NCBI RefSeq assembly: GCF_000619805.1
Contig: NZ_JHUV01000009.1
Span: 101,771-165,770 of the forward strand
DNA: 64,000 bases
Direction: 5' to 3'
Source of the DNA: Sulfurihydrogenibium subterraneum DSM 15120
GTDB lineage: Bacteria > Aquificota > Aquificia > Aquificales > Hydrogenothermaceae
Notes under the pieces: generated by a model
Seen by the model: only the letters and a program-made list of their open reading frames with translations
What the model was told of the DNA's origin: nothing
Databases searched by the model: none
Part shown: positions 2,744 through 57,968 of the stretch, piece by piece
Layout of the letters: each line of letters begins with the position of its first letter
Position numbering within the stretch: the first letter of the stretch is position 1
Program-made: the position numbers and the translations under genes

Positions 2744-3781
2744 ATGATAGGTAAGATTCTTGGAATGTTTTCTAACGACATAGGGGTAGACTTAGGAACT
2801 GCAAATACGTTGGTTTTTGTTAGAGGAAAAGGAATAGTATTAACAGAACCTTCAATTGTTGCAGTAGATAAGGTTCAAAACAAGGTTTTAGCTGTTGGAA
2901 AAGAAGCTAAAGAAATGGTAGGTAAAACACCTGAACACATACAGATTATAAGACCATTAAAAGACGGTGTTATAGCTGATTTTGATACAACTCAAGCAAT
3001 GCTTAAATACTTTATCCAAAAAGTCCACAACAACTTTCCACTTGTAAAGCTTATAAATCCAAGACCAAGAGTAATAATAGGAGTTCCGTCAGGAATTACT
3101 ACTGTTGAAAAAAGAGCTGTAATAGATGCTGCAAGGCAAGCAGGTGCAAGAGAGGTTTACCTTATAGCAGAGCCTATGGCAGCTGCAATAGGTGCAGGAC
3201 TACCTATAGAGCAACCAGGTGGAAATATGATAGTTGACATAGGAGGAGGAACGTCTGAAATAGCTGTTATATCTCTATCGGGATTGGTGATATCTAATTC
3301 CATTAGGATAGCTGGAGATGAAATGAACGAAGCTATTATAAACTATCTAAAAAGAAACTACCATATATTAATAGGTGAACAAACTGCAGAAAATATAAAA
3401 ATAAATCTTGGGTCTGCTATAGAATCAGAAAGAGATAATAAAACGATGGAGATTAGAGGTAGAGATATGGCAGGAATGCCAAGAAGTATAACAATTACAG
3501 GTAAAGATATTAGAGAAGCTCTGGAAGATGTTATCATTCAGATTGTTAATGCGGTAAAGTCAACTTTAGAAAAGACACCACCAGAATTAGCTGCAGATAT
3601 AGTTGAAAGAGGTATTGTTTTAGCTGGTGGTGGGTCTTTAATTTACGGACTTGATAAAAGATTAAAAAATGAAACAAACCTTCCTGTTGTTTACTGTGAT
3701 GACCCGTTAACTGCGGTTGCAAGAGGTATAGGAAAAGCTTTACAAAACATCGACCTTATAAAAAGAGTTTCTTTTAGATGA
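2744..3781 (+). CDS. mreB: rod shape-determining protein MreB
   Basis: Actin-fold motifs are present (GIDLGTANTLV, DIGGGTSE, LAGGGSL), and the gene lies upstream of mreC/mreD. Confidence 0.95.
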   Translation: MIGKILGMFSNDIGVDLGTANTLVFVRGKGIVLTEPSIVAVDKVQNKVLAVGKEAKEMVGKTPEHIQIIRPLKDGVIADFDTTQAMLKYFIQKVHNNFPLVKLINPRPRVIIGVPSGITTVEKRAVIDAARQAGAREVYLIAEPMAAAIGAGLPIEQPGGNMIVDIGGGTSEIAVISLSGLVISNSIRIAGDEMNEAIINYLKRNYHILIGEQTAENIKINLGSAIESERDNKTMEIRGRDMAGMPRSITITGKDIREALEDVIIQIVNAVKSTLEKTPPELAADIVERGIVLAGGGSLIYGLDKRLKNETNLPVVYCDDPLTAVARGIGKALQNIDLIKRVSFR

Positions 3782-24320: not shown

Positions 24321-27300
24321 ATGCAAAGAATTGTTATAAAGAGGGACGGAACTGTAGAAAAGTTCCAGATGAAAAAACTTGTAGATGCTATCTTTGCACT
24401 TTTAGAAGGCTTGGAGCTTCCTGATGATTACGAGATAGTATTTAAAGTAGCAAAAGAGCTTGATTTAAAAATTCCAGAAAAAGTTACAACAGAAGAACTT
24501 GATTATCTTGTGTTAAAGGCTATAGAACACCTTATACCAAAAAACTACATATACGACACACTTGCTACAAGACAGCTCCTAAAAATAATAAATAGAAGAA
24601 TAGACAGAAGATTTAGATCGTTTAAAGATTACATAAACTATGCAGTAGAAGAAAAGCTGTTAAAACCAGAGTTATTACAGTTTGATTTAGACAGAATAGA
24701 AAATGCAATAGACTACTCAAGGGATTACAACCTTGACTACTTTGGACTTTCTACCTTAAAAGACAGATACTTAATGAAAGATAGAGAATTTGAGACTATA
24801 GAAAAACCTCAATGGTTTTTTATGAGAGTTGCTATGGGAATAGGCAACACAGAAGACGAAATAATCAAGATATACAACAAACTTTCAAACCTTGAGTACT
24901 TACATTCCACACCAACACTGTTTAACTCTGGAACCCTTACAAATCAGTATAGCAGTTGTTTTCCTGCAGGAACACCTGTTATAACAAAAGATGGAGTAAA
25001 AAATATAGAGGATATTAAAATCGGAGATGTTGTCCTAACAGCTGAAGGAAATTACAGAGTAGTTTCAGGTTTATTTAGCAGAAAATATCAAAGAGACCTC
25101 TACAAACTTCACGTTTGGGGATTGTGGGGTAAAGAGGAAACTGTAAAGGCAACTGATGACCATAAATTTTTAGTGTTAAAAAAAGAAGATATAGAGTGTA
25201 ATAGAAAATTTGTTAAAGTCTGTCCTCCTTATCAAAATACTGAAAAATGTTATCCTGTTAAGAAACAGTATGCTTATACGTGTGAAGAAGTTGAAACTAA
25301 CTTGTTAGAAAATTTAAAATGGGTTGAAGCAAAAGATATAGAAGCTGGAGATTACATAGTTATTCCATATCCAAAAGAGATAAGTGAAAAGGTTGAGCTA
25401 AATATTTTAGATTATGTTGATAATCCTTACTTAGTAGAAAAAGATGGCTTTATTTACAAAGTAAACCATGACAAACAAAAAAGAACGCCAGAATTTAACA
25501 ATCAAATAAACAAAATCAAAAGTAGGATAAAAATTGATTACGATTTTATGAGATTTTTAGGTTATTATGTTGCTGAAGGTTATATTAATAAATCTGGAAA
25601 TAAACTTTCTACTGTGTTTACTTTTGGAGTTAAAGATAAAGAGTTTATTGAAGATGTTATCTCTTTAAGTAAAAAACTTTTTGATATCAATCCAACTGTA
25701 GCACATAATAAGGATAATTCAGTAAGAATTACTATAAACAGCACATATCTATCCCAATTTATTAAAAATTTAGTAGGAACAGGATTCAATAAAAAAATTC
25801 TTCCTCCAGAAGTAATGCTTGCAAATCCAGAAGCTCAAAAAGGTTTAATAGTAGGTTTATTTAGAGGAGATGCTACAGCTGTAAGCGACGGATACAGACT
25901 TACACTTTCAAATAAAACCCTTATTTACCAAACATTCCATATTTTATTAAGGATAGGAAGTTTACCAAGAATATCGAAAGCTTTAAAAAATCAGCTTGCT
26001 ACTGAAGACCCTTATTCCGTTCACATATCCATAAATGACAGTGAAGATTTAATAAAACTTATAAACAAAGACACCTACAAGATAACAGCAAAACCAGATA
26101 AAACAAAAATAAACAGCTACAGATTCAGATACAAAGACTTTGTTTTCTACAAAATAACGAAAGTAGAAAAAGAAACCTTTGACGGAATTGTTTACGACTT
26201 TGAAGTTAGAGGAGACCACAGCTTCACAGCTAACTTAGTTGCAGCACATAACTGCTACGTCAACGTTGTCGATGACTCTTTAGAGTCTATTATGGATAAA
26301 GCAAAAGAGACCGCATTTTTAGCCAAGTATGCTGGAGGAGTTGGAACAGATGTAACCAGAATAAGAGCAACAGGCTCAAAAATACACTCTCTTAACGCAA
26401 AATCGTCAGGAATAATACCGTTTATAAAAATCTTTGACACGATAGTAAACGCAATTCAGCAAGGTGGTAGGAGAAGAAGCTCCCAAGTTATGTATCTACA
26501 ACCTTGGCATTTAGACGTAGAAGCATTCTTAGACTTAAGAGAAACTACAGGAAACCCTTACTTTAGAACACCTTCTCTCAATACAGCTCTCTGGATGCCA
26601 GATGAACTTATGAGAAGAATAAAAGAAGGAGAGCCTATTTACCTTTTTGACCCAGCAGAATGTCCAAAATTAGTCACAGCATGGGGAGAGGAGTTTAAAA
26701 AAGAGTATGAAAAATGTATAGAAAAAGCGGAAAAAGGCGAGTTAAAACTATGGAAGAAAATAGACAGTAAAGACTTTTATAAAAAGTATCTCTTTAAACT
26801 TGCTAAAACAGGTCATCCCTGGCTCACGTTTAAAGACAGACACAACGAAAAAAACCCTTGCCCTCAGTATAGCGTAATAAACTCATCTAACCTTTGTACC
26901 GAAATAAGTATTCCAAACTCTCCTGAGAGTACTGCAGTTTGTACGCTTGCATCGGTTAATTTAGCAAGGCACGTAAAAGAAGATAAATCAGACTTTGACT
27001 GGGACAAGTTGAAAGACACATTAGAAACTATGGTTGTTGCCCTTGACAATATCCTTGATAAAAACTTCTATCCTTCAGAAGAATCAAGAAAGAATACAAT
27101 GGATTTAAGACCAATTGGCATCGGAGTTATGGGATTTCACGAAGCACTGATAAAGTTAGGAATCTCTTACGATAGTGATAAAGCAGTTGAAACAGCAAGG
27201 AAGATAGCCAAGTTTATGAGAGAGGTAACATACGCAAAATCTCAGGAGCTGGCAAAAGAAAGAGGAGCATTCCCTCACTACTATGAAGCAAACTACGATT

Positions 27301-27989
27301 ATCCACCAAGAAGAAACGCCGTCTTATTAGCTATAGCACCAACAGCTTCCATATCAATTATAGCCGGAACCTCTTCAAGTATAGACAACTATTTCTCTAA
27401 TATCTTCTCGAGGGATACACTGTCAGGAAAGTTTATAGTTATAAACAAACCACTTATGAAAGAGTTAGAAGAAAGTGGATTATGGTCAGAGGAGCTGGCG
27501 GAAAAGATAAAAGCCCACCAAGGAAGTATCCAGTACATAGAAGAGTTAGACGGTAAGATAGATAAATCTCTATATAAAACAGCTTACGAAGTATCACCTT
27601 ACAGACAGATAGATATAGCAGCTGCATTCCAAGAGCACATAGATCAAGCAGTGTCTAAGTCTTTATACATAGAGGAAGATTTAAGAGATAAGATGGAAGA
27701 TATATACATGTACGCTTGGGAAAAAGGTTTAAAATCTACTTACTACTGCTTTATCGATAAAACAGTCAAAGGTGAAAAGTACACTATGAATGTTAATAAA
27801 CGTGGAGAAAGAAGAGGTTTTGGACTTGCAAGAAGAAACGATAAAGAGTTAGAAAAAGAGCTTGAGGAAATTGAAAAACAGGCAAGGGAAAAGTATGGAG
27901 ATGAAGTTGTAGATGCTGTAAAAAGCGGTAATATAGAAGGCTGTCCAACAGACCCTTTACTTGCAAAGATATGTCCAAGTTGTGAGTAA
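24321..27989 (+). CDS. nrdA: ribonucleoside-diphosphate reductase alpha subunit (class I) interrupted in-frame by an intein
   Basis: ATP-cone N-terminus and an RNR barrel (NLCTEI, catalytic cysteines, C-terminal CPSCE tail). Extein length ~790 aa once the 432-aa intein is removed. Confidence 0.95.
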   Translation: MQRIVIKRDGTVEKFQMKKLVDAIFALLEGLELPDDYEIVFKVAKELDLKIPEKVTTEELDYLVLKAIEHLIPKNYIYDTLATRQLLKIINRRIDRRFRSFKDYINYAVEEKLLKPELLQFDLDRIENAIDYSRDYNLDYFGLSTLKDRYLMKDREFETIEKPQWFFMRVAMGIGNTEDEIIKIYNKLSNLEYLHSTPTLFNSGTLTNQYSSCFPAGTPVITKDGVKNIEDIKIGDVVLTAEGNYRVVSGLFSRKYQRDLYKLHVWGLWGKEETVKATDDHKFLVLKKEDIECNRKFVKVCPPYQNTEKCYPVKKQYAYTCEEVETNLLENLKWVEAKDIEAGDYIVIPYPKEISEKVELNILDYVDNPYLVEKDGFIYKVNHDKQKRTPEFNNQINKIKSRIKIDYDFMRFLGYYVAEGYINKSGNKLSTVFTFGVKDKEFIEDVISLSKKLFDINPTVAHNKDNSVRITINSTYLSQFIKNLVGTGFNKKILPPEVMLANPEAQKGLIVGLFRGDATAVSDGYRLTLSNKTLIYQTFHILLRIGSLPRISKALKNQLATEDPYSVHISINDSEDLIKLINKDTYKITAKPDKTKINSYRFRYKDFVFYKITKVEKETFDGIVYDFEVRGDHSFTANLVAAHNCYVNVVDDSLESIMDKAKETAFLAKYAGGVGTDVTRIRATGSKIHSLNAKSSGIIPFIKIFDTIVNAIQQGGRRRSSQVMYLQPWHLDVEAFLDLRETTGNPYFRTPSLNTALWMPDELMRRIKEGEPIYLFDPAECPKLVTAWGEEFKKEYEKCIEKAEKGELKLWKKIDSKDFYKKYLFKLAKTGHPWLTFKDRHNEKNPCPQYSVINSSNLCTEISIPNSPESTAVCTLASVNLARHVKEDKSDFDWDKLKDTLETMVVALDNILDKNFYPSEESRKNTMDLRPIGIGVMGFHEALIKLGISYDSDKAVETARKIAKFMREVTYAKSQELAKERGAFPHYYEANYDYPPRRNAVLLAIAPTASISIIAGTSSSIDNYFSNIFSRDTLSGKFIVINKPLMKELEESGLWSEELAEKIKAHQGSIQYIEELDGKIDKSLYKTAYEVSPYRQIDIAAAFQEHIDQAVSKSLYIEEDLRDKMEDIYMYAWEKGLKSTYYCFIDKTVKGEKYTMNVNKRGERRGFGLARRNDKELEKELEEIEKQAREKYGDEVVDAVKSGNIEGCPTDPLLAKICPSCE
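24957..26252 (+). mobile_element. intein (432 aa) with a LAGLIDADG homing-endonuclease domain inside nrdA
   Basis: It starts with Cys after ...QYSS and ends ...VAAHN, followed by the extein Cys (CYVN). Block A CFPAGTPVITKDG, LAGLIDADG-like LGYYVAEGY and LIVGLFRGDAT, and a terminal HN. Confidence 0.85.
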
Positions 27990-30839: not shown

Positions 30840-31163
30840 ATGAAGAAGTTAGTATTATCTGCACTTTCAGTTGCAGTAATGGCTGCAGGTTCTTTTGCGG
30901 CTGATGGAAAAGCTCTTTTCCAATCAAAAGGTTGTACAGCTTGCCACCAAGCAGCTGCTGACACTGTAGGACCATCTTTAAAGAAAATAGCTGCTGCTTA
31001 CGCAGGTAAAGAAGCAGATTTAATCAAGTTCTTAAAAGGTGAAGGAAAGGCAATAGTTGACCCTGCAAAAGAAGCTGTAATGAAACCACAAATTAACACA
31101 ACTAAAGCTATGAAAGATGATGAATTAAAAGCATTAGCTCAATTCATGCTTTCTCACAAGTAA
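30840..31163 (+). CDS. class I c-type cytochrome (c552/c555-like) with signal peptide
   Basis: A signal peptide, then GCTACHQ (CxxCH) and a downstream Met ligand region. Confidence 0.85.
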   Translation: MKKLVLSALSVAVMAAGSFAADGKALFQSKGCTACHQAAADTVGPSLKKIAAAYAGKEADLIKFLKGEGKAIVDPAKEAVMKPQINTTKAMKDDELKALAQFMLSHK

Positions 31164-31170
31164 TCTGCTA

Positions 31171-31202: not shown

Positions 31203-31568
31203 ATGAAGGTTATATACAGTTTTATTTTAATTGCTCTATTTATTTCTGTATCATATGGTATTGAAGGTAAAGACCTGTATATAAAACATGGCTGTAATGC
31301 CTGCCACGACCCATTTGAAAGAAAAACTGGACCATCTTTCAAAGAAATATTCCAAAGATATGGTACAAGTAAATCAGCAATAGAAAAGGTTGCAAAACTT
31401 ATAATAAAACCAAACCCTTCTAACTGGCCTGGATTTGCTTATATGCCACCTTATAACATCTCTTATCAAGAAGCTCTAAAGTTAGCTGAGTATGTTTTAA
31501 TACATTCTCAAAAAGAAAAACAGATAAAAAAACAGGAAGGTTCACTTCCTGAAAGTGAAGCTTTTTAA
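31203..31568 (+). CDS. second monohaem c-type cytochrome
   Basis: An N-terminal hydrophobic signal/anchor, then GCNACHD (CxxCH). Confidence 0.75.
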
Positions 31569-40946: not shown

Positions 40947-41339
40947 TTGTATATGGCTAAGGTTGTAAAATTTAACTTTGAAGATTTACAAGAAAATACT
41001 ACAACAGAAGATAAACAGCAGGAAACTCCTCAGCAAGATGAAAAAGATCTTATAAGACAAGCTTTAGAAGACCATGTACTTTCAAACTTTGCCGTAAAAA
41101 CTATACTAGGAATGAACTTTGTATATAAAGTCAATAAAAACGACGTAGGAGTTATAGGACAACTTGCTTACGAGCACAAAAGAAGACCTGGGGTGTTTGT
41201 TGCAGATTACATAGCAAAAGGATATAAACAAAAAGACAAGTATATAATAGACAGTCTTGCATTTGAACTAGGAGAACCAGAATTTTATAAACAGATCTTT
41301 AACATTCTAAAAGCTAAAAAGGCTCTTCCAGAGTTATAA
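40947..41339 (+). CDS. hypothetical protein (130 aa) whose stop codon abuts the right end of the TnpB element
   Basis: ORF with an acidic, Q-rich N-terminus and no motif. The stop TAA at 41337-41339 is immediately followed by the element's terminal hairpin. Confidence 0.4.
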   Translation: MYMAKVVKFNFEDLQENTTTEDKQQETPQQDEKDLIRQALEDHVLSNFAVKTILGMNFVYKVNKNDVGVIGQLAYEHKRRPGVFVADYIAKGYKQKDKYIIDSLAFELGEPEFYKQIFNILKAKKALPEL

Positions 41340-41560
41340 GGTACACTTACAGATACTAACTGGTAAACAAATGTAATCAAAAGATTATAAAAAATTGTTT
41401 ACCAGTGTTCTCTTGCAGTGTACCCGTAATGGCCTTCTACCTGCTATCTCTAATAAAGACTCGCAGGTTACTTTTGAAATTAAGTTAAGTGTTAATCTTA
41501 TCGGCCTCGAAAGTTTGTCTATTAGTGTTTCCTCGTCTATTAGAGGCTTTGCCTCTTTCC
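41338..41560 (-). ncRNA. candidate omega-RNA (reRNA)-like scaffold overlapping the tnpB 3' end and right end
   Basis: By analogy with IS605 TnpB elements, the omega-RNA derives from the tnpB 3' end plus the right end. This ~220-bp segment is the part conserved in the ORF-less derivative copy, and it contains nested inverted repeats (41360-41370/41395-41405 and 41340-41352/41413-41425). Confidence 0.3.
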
Positions 41561-43007
41561 TTAATATGTTATAACTCCCTACTGCATTTGCGTTAAATAC
41601 TTTATTCGTTATGTTATCTTTATATAGCCCTCTTTTTATTCTTATTCCGTTATAAAGTTGGTTTAATTTCTCTTTTAACTGCTTTAAAATTCCTTCATTC
41701 CCTTCCGTTTTTGCTTTTAAATACTCTTTCCCTGTTTCTAATACTTTGTGTAAATCTGCAAATGGTGATGTCTTACTTGTAAATTCTTCTGCTACTTCTG
41801 TTAATTTTACTCCGTATTCTTCTAATTTATATTTTAACTGATTTATTAGCTTTCTAAAAGGTATGTTTACAAAGTTTTGGTTTGTTTTTGTGCTGAGGTT
41901 TATTCCGTTTTTACTTTCTGTTGCTCCTTTTCCTATATAGACTTCTTTATGTCCTGTTTCATTTAAAAAGTCTGTTATTTTTCTTGTTATCTTATGGAAT
42001 GTATCTGTTATCCATCTGTTTCTGTATGCTGATAATTCTTTTTGTTTTTTTATTAGTAGTTTCTTTTCTTTCTCTAAGGCTGTTGTATCTAAATTGTCTT
42101 TTTGTAGTTTGTTTATCTGGTTTTGAATGTTATCTATTTTTGATTGCAGTTTTGCTTTTTCTTTGTTATACCACTGATTTATTGATTTTATTTCTTTGCC
42201 TGATACTATTATTGTCTGTAATTCTTTGTTTGTTGAAAAGAGTGTTATTAGATTATCAAGTCCTAAATCTATTCCTGCTATGTGTGTTTTTTCTTGATTA
42301 GAGTTAATTTGTGTTTCTGGTATTGTGTAAACTATATCCACGTATATATCGCTTGCTATAAACTTTATTCTTGCTGATTTTATTTCATAGTTAAAGTCTT
42401 TTGGTAATTTTACTTTTAGATACTGTTTTTCTTCTTTATTATTTGTTAGTGTTATTAGTAGATGTTTTCCTTTTTCTTCTTCTAATACTTTAAATGTGTT
42501 TACATTAAGTTCTGCTGTAAATGATGGAATGTCTTTTAATTTTTTAGCTTTTGGTGGTCTTGGAATTGCATTGAAGGAATTTGAATTTTCTTTATATTTT
42601 TGTATGCTTTTGAAAAAACTTTTGTAGTCTTTTATAAGTTGTCTTATTAGTGTTTGGACTGTGTAGTTGTTTTTTATTTTTTGTTTTTGTTTTATTAGTT
42701 TATCTTGAAAATCTTTTAGCTGGTTTACTTTCTCTATATTATCTGTAATAGTTTTAAATTCTTTAAGTTTTTCTATGAAATTCTCTTTACTTTCTCTTGG
42801 TTTATAACCTTTATTATTTACAAGTGCATACAGATAACTCTCATTTAGTATCCATCTTCCGTAGTTTTGTTGATATATTTTGTTGAAGATAATAAGCAGG
42901 TTTCTAAATTGCGCTAATGAGTATAGAAGGTTTGATATTTTTTCTTTTCTCTGTTTTCCGCTTATCCTGATGCTTAGTATTCTTTTTGCTGTTTTATTTA
43001 ATTGCAT
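41385..43007 (-). CDS. TnpB-like (IS605 OrfB family) protein, 540 aa, with degenerate RuvC-II/III residues and no zinc finger
   Basis: TnpB-like N-terminal region (RILSIRISGKQRKEKISNLLYSLAQFRNLLIIFNKIY), a WED-like segment, and a RuvC-I motif IAGIDLGLDNL. The YKLEEYGVKLTEVAEEFTSKTSP segment aligns to the TnpB RuvC-II to zinc-finger junction but has no Cys. The RuvC-III-like motif FNANAVGSYNIL carries Asn where the catalytic Asp is expected. The whole protein has only 2 Cys. Confidence 0.6.
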   Translation of the reverse strand: MQLNKTAKRILSIRISGKQRKEKISNLLYSLAQFRNLLIIFNKIYQQNYGRWILNESYLYALVNNKGYKPRESKENFIEKLKEFKTITDNIEKVNQLKDFQDKLIKQKQKIKNNYTVQTLIRQLIKDYKSFFKSIQKYKENSNSFNAIPRPPKAKKLKDIPSFTAELNVNTFKVLEEEKGKHLLITLTNNKEEKQYLKVKLPKDFNYEIKSARIKFIASDIYVDIVYTIPETQINSNQEKTHIAGIDLGLDNLITLFSTNKELQTIIVSGKEIKSINQWYNKEKAKLQSKIDNIQNQINKLQKDNLDTTALEKEKKLLIKKQKELSAYRNRWITDTFHKITRKITDFLNETGHKEVYIGKGATESKNGINLSTKTNQNFVNIPFRKLINQLKYKLEEYGVKLTEVAEEFTSKTSPFADLHKVLETGKEYLKAKTEGNEGILKQLKEKLNQLYNGIRIKRGLYKDNITNKVFNANAVGSYNILRKEAKPLIDEETLIDKLSRPIRLTLNLISKVTCESLLEIAGRRPLRVHCKRTLVNNFL

Positions 43008-43118
43008 TTAATATTTTTTTTGCTTTTATTTGTATAATCATATAATTTTTTGATATAATTTGTCAATAAGTTTTAAGAAACTATAGGCTATATATTCACT
43101 AAAAAGAGAGGTTTAAAA

Positions 43119-55957: not shown

Positions 55958-56045
55958 GGAGGAGTGGCTGAGTGGACGAAAGCGGGTGATTTGAAATCAC
56001 TTGAGGGTTGACAGCCCTCCGGGGGTTCGAATCCCTCCTCCTCCG
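55958..56045 (+). tRNA. tRNA-Ser (UGA anticodon)
   Basis: 88 nt with acceptor GGAGGAG/CTCCTCC, anticodon stem GGTGA/TCACT around loop TTTGAAA (anticodon TGA), a long variable arm, and T-arm GGGGGTTCGAATCCCTC. Confidence 0.9.
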
Positions 56046-56349
56046 CTTAACATTTACCTTGACAACCGAATAGGTTTTAATCCCACTTAAGTTTTTGATA
56101 ATCTGGTAAAATTAACTTATTAATAACAATTATTATTAAGTTTTGCATCGTGATAACAGAAAATATATTATTGTAATAATCAAGTAGTGATAAGGGTGAA
56201 AGTGGGAATATAATAGAAAATATATTTGCATTATGTGAGGTTTGATGCAATTAACCTCAATTTGTGAGCGGTTAACGAAAATAAAAACTGCCAGCAAACC
56301 AGTATCATTACTTGATTATTTAAAATTTTTTATTTTTAAAAATTAACGG

Positions 56350-56907
56350 GTTTTGTCTGAACTATGTGGGATAGAAAGGAAAATCAAAAAAATAGCTGAA
56401 GAAGAGCTACAAGCTGGTTTTGTCTGAACTATGTGGGATAGAAAGTTGAAGCTGCTTTGTTAACAACTTCTGCTTTTATTACGTTTTGTCTGAACTATGT
56501 GGGATAGAAAGGAACATTTTTTTATTATTTTCTTTTTTATTTTTTCTAGTTTTGTCTGAACTATGTGGGATAGAAAGACGAGTGCTGTTATTATAGCACC
56601 CGCATAAGGAAAAAGTTTTGTCTGAACTATGTGGGATAGAAAGTTTCTAACATGACATCATCAATCTCAAAATATTTTTTGGTTTTGTCTGAACTATGTG
56701 GGATAGAAAGTCATCGTATTGAGAGGTAAATTTTATCACTGGGACTAAGTTTTGTCTGAACTATGTGGGATAGAAAGTAATTCTCCCTGCCACGAATGAC
56801 TGCACTGATACCTGTTTTGTCTGAACTATGTGGGATAGAAAGGTTTTTCTTCTGGGTTGTAGTATTTCCTGTATTCCTGTTTTGTCTGAACTATGTGGGA
56901 TAGGTTT
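56350..56907 (+). CRISPR. CRISPR array of nine 29-nt repeats (GTTTTGTCTGAACTATGTGGGATAGAAAG) and eight 36-38-nt spacers. The last repeat is degenerate, and no cas genes occur within the window.
   Basis: Perfect direct repeats begin at 56350, 56417, 56483, 56549, 56615, 56682, 56749 and 56814, with a degenerate copy at 56879-56907 (...GGGATAGgttt). An AT-rich 300-bp leader lies between tRNA-Ser and the first repeat. The repeat 3' end, ATAGAAAG, resembles a Cas6-type 8-nt handle. Confidence 0.9.
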
Positions 56908-56957
56908 AATTACAATTTTTAAACAGAGAGCTTATAAAAACGATTATGATATCGTTT

Positions 56958-57231
56958 ATAGTTTCTAAAAACTTATTGACAAATCATATCGAAAGATTAT
57001 ATAATTATGTATATGAAAGCAAAAGAATATTAAAAGTTTTAAGAATAAGTAGAATAACATAATTAATGAAAGAGGCAAAGCCTCTAAGGACGGTAAGATT
57101 AACGCTTAACTTAATTTGAAAAGTAACCTGCGAGTCTCTATTAGAGATAGCAGGTAGAAGGCCATTACGGGTACACTGCAAGATAGCTTTGTTTACCAGT
57201 TAGTATCTGTAAGTGTACCTTGAATGATGAA
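56958..57231 (+). mobile_element. internally deleted (MITE-like) derivative of the 41338-43080 TnpB element, in the opposite orientation
   Basis: 56958-57047 aligns, on the opposite strand, to 43000-43080 (for example ATAGTTTCTAAAAACTTATTGACAAAT). 57061-57231 aligns to 41340-41550 with a ~30-bp internal deletion and a 41-to-6-bp indel. Its + strand still encodes a C-terminal remnant, ...KVTCESLLEIAGRRPLRVHCK, interrupted by a TGA. Confidence 0.6.
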
Positions 57232-57395
57232 AAATAGAGTGTATAAGTTTTACACTATCAAGGAAGCTGTAAGAAATCTCTAGCTAATTTTAAATAAGTT
57301 TAAACCCAAAACAATGATTATCATTACAATAATAGAAGCTATAAGTAAGATTTTTAGTTTTCGATTTTCTGCTTTCACTTCATTTAATTTTTTTC

Positions 57396-57968
57396 TTACA
57401 GGCGAAAAACTGCTTTGACCTCCTCTAACATCTTTTTTCTCTCTTCATCTGATACGTATGGTACAGCATAAAATATTTTGTGCTGAATAACTTTCATTCC
57501 GCAGAAGGTAAATATTCCACCTATTGTCTTTTTCAAACATTCTGACATTCCAGTAGATACAGCTGTATTTTCATCTTCTCCCATAGTATTGAAAATAATT
57601 ACTTTTTTGTCAGTTAGAAGTGGTTTTATTTCGCCGTTTTCTTCAGCGTAAGCAAAACCGTAAGAAAAAACTCTATCTATGTATCCTTTTAGTATAGCTG
57701 GCATTGAGTACCACCATATTGGATGAATTACAACTAGTGTATCAGCATTTTTTACAAGGGTTTGTTGATGTTTAACATCGTCTAAAACTTTGCTTTGCAT
57801 TATAGCTTCAAAGCCTTGAGGTTTTAACACTGGGTCAAAGTTTATTTGGTACAAATCTACAGTTTCAAAGCTTTTTCCTGCATTTTTTAAAGTTTCTTCA
57901 ATAGTACTTTTTATAGCAGAGTTAAAACTCTTTGGATTTGGATGAGCGTAGATTATAAGATAATCCAT
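57396..57968 (-). CDS. NAD(P)H dehydrogenase (quinone)-like flavodoxin-fold oxidoreductase
   Basis: MDYLIIYAHPNPKSFN... is a Flavodoxin_2 pattern, 190 aa. Confidence 0.75.
   Translation of the reverse strand: MDYLIIYAHPNPKSFNSAIKSTIEETLKNAGKSFETVDLYQINFDPVLKPQGFEAIMQSKVLDDVKHQQTLVKNADTLVVIHPIWWYSMPAILKGYIDRVFSYGFAYAEENGEIKPLLTDKKVIIFNTMGEDENTAVSTGMSECLKKTIGGIFTFCGMKVIQHKIFYAVPYVSDEERKKMLEEVKAVFRL

Follow-up and report, generated by a model that had tools for sequence, protein, structure and literature searches.

The TnpB-bearing IS200/IS605 transposons, with the guide RNAs that they encode, are the closest described counterparts of the element reported here. [quoted passage not shown] The reRNA of ISDra2 is about 150 nt long, of which the last ~16 nt are derived from the flank (PMC8612924). 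In addition, standalone omega-RNAs without an effector gene co-occur with effector-bearing loci and act in trans (Altae-Tran 2021, in the account given by PMC10691335), and PATE-like derivatives of IS605 often encode omega-RNAs for use in trans (Meers et al., bioRxiv 10.1101/2023.03.14.532601). [quoted passage not shown] Here, an element of about 260 bp beside a CRISPR array of Sulfurihydrogenibium subterraneum was analysed within a 64 kb stretch of DNA (the window). This mini element belongs to an already described class of element, and it is likely a non-autonomous, ORF-less derivative of a solo-TnpB (IS1341-like) IS200/IS605-type element, comparable to standalone omega-RNA and PATE-like elements. 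It keeps exactly what an element that needs only an RNA would require, namely a promoter-bearing left end, a three-helix scaffold of ~150 nt and the right end.

The mini element is found between a tRNA-Ser gene (55958-56046), which is the 5′ neighbour of the CRISPR leader, and a flavodoxin-like NAD(P)H oxidoreductase gene (57396-57968, - strand), which is its own 3′ neighbour. The leader (56047..56349, + strand), an AT-rich and ORF-free stretch of ~300 nt from the tRNA-Ser to the first repeat, contains promoter-like sites on the + strand and is followed by the array (56350..56907, + strand), which comprises nine 29-nt repeats GTTTTGTCTGAACTATGTGGGATAGAAAG and eight spacers of 36-38 nt. From the left-hand leader, the repeat 3′ end ATAGAAAG and the right-hand terminal repeat (56879-56907), which is degenerate at its 3′ end (…ATAGGTTT), we infer that the array would be transcribed from the + strand; the repeat end is one that we take to resemble the 3′ end of type I/III repeats. 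The strand of the Rfam CRISPR repeat models was assumed to be arbitrary, and the CRISPR-DR43 match to the array, which lies on the - strand, was given no weight for its orientation. No cas genes were present among the annotated genes, which cover ~20 kb to 64 kb of the window. Between the array and the mini element is a trailer of 49 nt (56908..56956, + strand), where a weak hairpin AAACGAT-tatgat-ATCGTTT (56938-56957) is found and no terminator-like site on the + strand; further decayed CRISPR repeats were not detected above the null in the trailer, the mini element or the flank, and the array spacers had no matches in the window, mini element included. As a side observation, a Logan contig of the same strain, which starts at 41426 and is 14,739 bp long, should end near 56164, ~185 nt before the first repeat. 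A break at this point suggests that further arrays of the genome share the repeat-proximal part of this leader. As well, a 32-aa ORF, MKAENRKLKILLIASIIVMIIIVLGLNLFKIS (57280-57378, - strand), which has a hydrophobic C-terminal stretch and might encode a small membrane protein, comes shortly after the 3′ end of the flavodoxin-like gene, at 60 nt from the mini right end, and is uncalled in the Logan annotation.

The first-pass annotation had described 56958-57231 as a miniature, TnpB-derived copy of an element at 41338-43080 in inverted orientation, and the relationship was borne out, with 270 of 296 aligned positions identical (~91%) in a gap-tolerant pairwise map and with a parent ORF that matches TnpB models. 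The right end of the element is at 57220 (...GTACCT) rather than 57231, homology with the full copy reaching 57221; the element, made up of left end, scraps, omega-RNA scaffold and right end, thus occupies 56962..57220 on the + strand. A repeat search returned four inverted matches between the full and mini copies, namely 43015-43093/56949-57027 (84%), 41540-41565/57062-57087 (96%), 41393-41507/57087-57201 (89%) and 41338-41371/57188-57221 (100%). The family right-end profile matched the mini element with E=1e-38 (nhmmer), and the window holds this one mini and one full copy, a third being absent. Logan contigs of the same strain break within the shared repeat at 41426 and 57192.

When mapped block by block, 56949-57034 of the mini element and its upstream edge corresponds to parent 43093-43007 (83-93% identity) and contains the left end and the 5′ UTR, 57035-57061 consists of 27 nt of unassignable scraps with no parent counterpart, and the 3′ part is assembled from 57062-57086 (parent 41565-41541, 96%), 57087-57183 (parent 41507-41411, 95%) and 57184-57220 (parent 41375-41339, 95%). 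Both ends of the TnpB-bearing parent are therefore kept, the left at 83-93% and the right-end blocks at 95-96% identity, and retention of the left end had been correctly noted. The ~40 nt of the ORF 5′ end that had been thought to persist are not there: left-side homology ends at the A of the parent ATG (57034 = 43007), and the start codon is gone from the mini element. Similarly, the 3′/right-end segment is retained as proposed, but it measures ~160 nt (57062-57220) instead of ~180 bp and, compared with the parent, has lost ~33-36 nt at one internal place and 35 nt at another. The loss of more than 1.4 kb of coding sequence agrees with the pairwise map, no ORF of at least 60 aa remains (the longest overlapping one being 58 aa and antisense), and the C-terminal remnant KVTCESLLEIAGRRPLRVHCK, preceded by an in-frame TGA, was recovered in the mini element as described. 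The element shares the orientation of the array and is inverted relative to the full copy; 49 nt separate the last repeat from TATAG (56957..56961, + strand), the candidate TAM, which abuts the left end on its 5′ side. By analogy with the ISDra2 reRNA, the predicted guide is TGAATGATGAAAAATAGAGT (57221..57240, + strand), the flank directly 3′ of the right end.

The full-length parent-type element occupies 41339..43080 on the - strand, with the left end at 43080, the right end at 41339 and TATAG at 43081-43085 (- strand). Its tnpB gene (41385..43007, - strand) encodes a protein of 540 aa (WP_051524389.1), which scored 107 bits (1e-30) against NCBIfam guided_TnpB (NF040570, cut-off 100) and exceeded the gathering thresholds of PF01385 and PF07282 (Pfam OrfB_IS605 and Cas12f1-like_TNB). 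The protein had no match in the PDB by phmmer, while the family profile matched weakly, in the RuvC-II region of Cas12f only. Members of this family are ~500-550 aa long, the close ones being from Aquificota, and have no zinc-finger cysteines (TSKTSPFAD). In the RuvC domain, D247 is present in the parent TnpB, and the canonical Glu of RuvC-II is replaced family-wide by Gly (VYIGKG vs Cas12f M-EDL), with an invariant alternative Glu, E407, one strand later. Codon 474 (41586..41588, - strand), in the RuvC-III motif FNADxxG, is AAT (Asn) in the window tnpB, whereas the relatives have GAT and Asp is found in 20 of 20 aligned homologs; the remaining ORF is intact, and the Asn occurs in the window copy only. 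The codon-474 base is identical in the Logan assembly of SRR3314047, which possibly derives from the same reads as the reference. Since Asn474 replaces the RuvC-III Asp, this TnpB, the sole cognate one in view, is probably inactive as a nuclease, and the substitution suggests a recent inactivation. In the parent TnpB and the homologs P0007-P0125, the ORF spans the entire omega-RNA scaffold, and the stop codon is placed in the loop of the terminal hairpin.

Other genes of the same window may be mentioned here. A 130-aa ORF at the parent right end (40947-41339) was considered as a TnpA and rejected, as it had no Pfam match. In the Logan annotation, the ribonucleotide reductase large subunit (1222 aa, 24321-27989, + strand) matches Pfam families of intein and LAGLIDADG type, which suggests that it contains an intein. 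A CxxCH haem c-binding motif is present in each of two tandem small ORFs (30840-31165 and 31205-31568, + strand); the first of these is where a Logan contig appears to end (~31070), perhaps owing to the similarity of the two ORFs.

The identification of the 3′ segment kept in the mini element as an omega-RNA scaffold, which had been proposed from its position, is supported by a comparative analysis of right ends from hot-spring metagenomes (TnpB 83% identical), Persephonella hydrogeniphila (74%), Venenivibrio (56%) and further metagenome contigs. Three helices were predicted by RNAalifold, namely a 6-bp stem-loop, a nested 12-bp stem-loop and a long terminal hairpin. Across an alignment of nine sequences, the 30 base pairs are paired in 97.8% of cells and 10 of the 30 show compensatory changes, a result that no shuffle of the columns reached in 500 trials; with the 3′ partners displaced by 1-3 columns, 33-44% remained paired. 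Stem-loop 1 (AGAGGC-aaa-GCCTCT, 57071..57085, + strand) has 6 pairs, all paired in the nine sequences and 2 of them compensatory, while stem-loop 2 (57126..57155, + strand) is a nested helix, ACCTGC..GTCTCT-att-AGAGAT..GCAGGT, with 12 pairs, 5 of them compensatory, and an invariant G-U pair. The terminal hairpin GGGTACACT...AGTGTACCT (57169..57220, + strand), whose presence in the mini element had been reported and is upheld, has a closing pair that is the last right-end nucleotide, and it represents a short form without the 35-nt distal part of the full-length copies. Several of the pairs are invariant G-U, which would read as C-A on the opposite strand and so place the scaffold on the sense strand. 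The same three helices appear when the mini element is folded as a single sequence (z = -2.9), and from stem-loop 1 to the right end it measures 150 nt. Relative to the parent, the mini scaffold has 9 differences, of which 8 are unpaired and 1 turns U-G into C-G, so that no pair is broken. Moreover, the DNA of the last ~230 nt of full-length elements is strikingly conserved. The segment therefore combines a position at the 3′ end of tnpB and the right end, the sense strand and a covariation-backed structure. A search of either copy against Rfam 15 returned no families, even at E <= 10, and the whole-window search was likewise empty on the scaffold.

In addition to the scaffold, the left end of the mini element contains a predicted sigma-70 promoter, TTGACA-18 nt-TATAAT (56976..57005, + strand), which agrees with the consensus at 12 of 12 positions. 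Promoter-like sequence is present at the equivalent left-end site of the parent copy (11/12), of a second ORF-less copy described below (9/12) and of relatives. The mini scaffold is thus equipped with its own putative promoter ~60 nt upstream, which would make read-through from the array unnecessary for its expression.

Among family members, TATAG stands at the left homology boundary of six independent sites (the full copy, the mini element, L003, L009, L010/L012 and L011), and at a seventh, L007, the boundary is TATAA. Homology at the right end stops at …GT(A/G)CCT, and the flanks differ directly after it with no flank duplication, so that insertion 3′ of the motif without target-site duplication, as is typical of IS200/IS605 elements, was seen at seven independent sites, and TATAG is a candidate TAM of the family. 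No tnpA adjoins the family elements at eight sites, and the window contains no TATAG-flanked second match to either predicted guide. The second ORF-less copy, L011, was found at positions ~962-1219 of a 6-kb contig from an uncultured Aquificales MAG, between a membrane-protein-like ORF and a gene for a fumarase C-terminal part, on a contig without an array. It has TATAG, the left-end promoter-like site, stem-loop 2 and the short terminal hairpin but no tnpB; its stem-loop 1, ATCGGC-ttt-GCCGAT, carries compensatory changes, and its fold contains the same three modules (z = -5.4). Two segments are absent from both L011 and the mini element, namely the ~35-nt linker after stem-loop 1 and the distal part of the terminal hairpin, the latter holding the tnpB stop codon in full-length copies. 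Since the same trimmed architecture recurs in a divergent lineage, the sequences suggest that the two dropped segments may be needed for the protein only.

A scan of the genome collection with a 22-mer common to both copies gave 0 matches and likewise missed the relatives L003-L010. A degenerate two-block pattern gave 1 match among genomes (L011), 2 among metagenomes (both full-length) and 0 among viral contigs; these scans also missed L003-L010, and their counts are no basis for a copy-number estimate. The nhmmer profiles recovered all known copies and no new ones. Homologs of the downstream flavodoxin-like gene (nearest 77% identical) were found in other gene contexts, with no synteny and no empty site. 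Two observations concern individual relatives. In L010 (~2990-3003) and L012 (~160-175), only 5 nt part TATAG from the annotated tnpB ATG and there is no left-end promoter; as the element abuts a methyltransferase gene and overlaps its 3′ end, it may rely on read-through transcription. In L003 (10155-11638) and L005 (7536-9019), which represent a relative with TnpB 83% identical, a cas2-cas1-cas4 cluster is located ~3.5 kb downstream of the element, with four housekeeping genes between, on a contig without an array.

As has been described for standalone omega-RNA and PATE elements, the mini element has both ends, a scaffold, no protein gene and the family motif adjacent to it, and a compatible TnpB is encoded elsewhere in its genome. 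It differs from them in that its scaffold is shortened relative to the parent by the loss of two internal segments and that the cognate TnpB has Asn474, and the likeness is drawn from one mini copy known in 64 kb of genome. Compared with ISDra2 TnpB and its reRNA (PMC8612924), an RNA of ~150 nt would likewise be formed from the tnpB 3′ end and the right end with a predicted guide from the flank, and a 5-nt motif likewise stands 5′ of the left end (TTGAT in ISDra2, TATAG here) with no target duplication. Unlike ISDra2, the system has very low protein similarity to it, no zinc-finger cysteines, Gly for the RuvC-II Glu, a protein of ~500-550 aa and no adjacent tnpA. The Gly in place of the RuvC-II Glu, the alternative E407 and the NAD-type RuvC-III recall TnpB clades with rearranged RuvC-II such as RIIr-5 (PMC10691335), a likeness based on motif resemblance and not on tree placement, while the absence of a C4 zinc finger has been described for another clade, RIIIr-4 (PMC10691335).

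If the mini element functions as the published systems do, the left-end promoter would transcribe the scaffold together with ~16-20 nt of the right-hand flank, and the cognate TnpB, encoded 14 kb away, would take up this RNA in trans. The RNA-TnpB complex would then recognise the empty site, TATAG followed by TGAATGATG..., and break-induced repair would reverse the excision; the empty allele predicted at the mini site is ...CGTTTATAG joined directly to TGAATGATG.... The array trailer would represent dispensable intergenic DNA with a TATAG by chance, in which the mini element landed. Alternatively, it could have arrived at full length and been reduced at the site, instead of transposing as a mini element. 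With Asn in place of the RuvC-III Asp in the one cognate TnpB in view, the pair may already be a decaying relic that binds without cutting.

That the element lies past the degenerate terminal repeat, in the orientation of the array and with the leader on the far side, was stated correctly in the first-pass annotation, the gap being 49 nt; its further suggestion, that this configuration bears on the origin of type V tracrRNA/effector modules, was not sustained. Under a functional coupling of this kind, read-through array transcripts would carry the scaffold as a tracrRNA-like partner or as crRNA/omega-RNA hybrids of a nascent type V system. Like the type V tracrRNA/crRNA modules of Cas12b/e/f, the mini scaffold comes from a TnpB-family right end close to an array, and among the routes proposed for the origin of Cas12 systems is the insertion of a transposon beside an array that was already there (PMC10691335). 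The shared orientation, the 49 nt from the last repeat and the missing terminator-like site on the + strand between array and scaffold mean that read-through is possible, but the features that distinguish type V modules, an anti-repeat and an adjacent effector with the array downstream, are lacking. The best repeat duplexes reach -13.7 kcal/mol on the + transcript and -16.3 kcal/mol on the - transcript, within both the shuffled (-15.1 +/- 2.3) and genomic (-15.9 +/- 2.1) distributions, and ungapped complementarity to the repeat in the mini region is at chance level, in agreement with the annotation's own failure to see an anti-repeat. No Cas12/TnpB-like effector gene is present between 43.1 and 64 kb, and the sole tnpB in view, with its N474, is 14 kb upstream of the array on the opposite strand. 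The polarity is also wrong, since the array lies 5′ of the scaffold and a read-through transcript would have its spacers 5′ of the scaffold and more than 150 nt away, as against the 3′ guides of TnpB (PMC8612924) and the downstream arrays of Cas12 (PMC10691335). Arrays are found near none of the other seven family sites, L011 included; of the eight sites examined, only that of the mini element is near one. As noted above, the repeat end ATAGAAAG is presumably of type I/III character, unlike type V, and the mini element has its own promoter. Coupling to the array is accordingly the least credible of the readings weighed here, and read-through into the mini element would have no obvious consequence. 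The position beside the array is best read as a chance landing in tolerant intergenic DNA, with the adjacency incidental, and this matches the simpler account that the annotation had also offered, insertion of a MITE-like derivative into the array trailer.

Two further readings were weighed. The mini element might be an inert relic, that is, a full-length TnpB element in the trailer that was eroded in place by deletions and is now untranscribed and unused, its helices reflecting recent origin. This is a possibility of some weight, though clearly the less likely one, as it would account for at least 4 blocks parted by deletions plus 27 nt of scraps, for the single mini and single full copy in 64 kb, for a resident TnpB that is apparently catalytically damaged, and for a scaffold whose 95% identity to the parent is not significantly above the expectation from half the left-end divergence. 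It agrees poorly with a promoter at 12/12 consensus positions, above the 11/12 of the parent, and with 0 of 9 scaffold differences breaking a pair; moreover, the divergent ORF-less copy L011 has the same kept and deleted modules elsewhere, which argues for a recurring, selected architecture over random erosion. Alternatively, the Asn474 TnpB and the standalone guide RNA might together form a domesticated, nuclease-dead and TldR-like regulator of a TATAG-flanked target. TnpB domestication has precedent (PMC10705468), the RuvC-III Asp is replaced within an otherwise intact 540-aa ORF, and the guide RNA has a separate promoter. This reading is nevertheless very improbable: the change is one substitution in the window copy only, with Asp in 20/20 homologs, and so looks like recent decay and not conserved exaptation, both guides are merely the flanks of their own right ends, a TATAG-flanked second target is absent from the window, and the ends of the element are preserved, as they are in mobile copies. 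It would be similarly surprising if the Asn474 TnpB and the streamlined guide RNA by the array were a nuclease-dead DNA-binding pair under co-option rather than a decaying transposon; such a pair could regulate a target in the manner of TldR or, with lower probability, represent the first step to an array-linked effector.

With the non-autonomous guide-RNA element as the preferred reading, the TnpB right end found next to the CRISPR array belongs to an ordinary element of its class in dispensable DNA and does not mark a type V intermediate. Moreover, the two divergent ORF-less copies, which have the same helices and the same losses, provide a natural map of the minimal scaffold for a thermophilic TnpB family with a rearranged RuvC-II and no zinc finger. 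The family is further marked by a clear TATAG as candidate TAM and by conservation of the left-end promoter.
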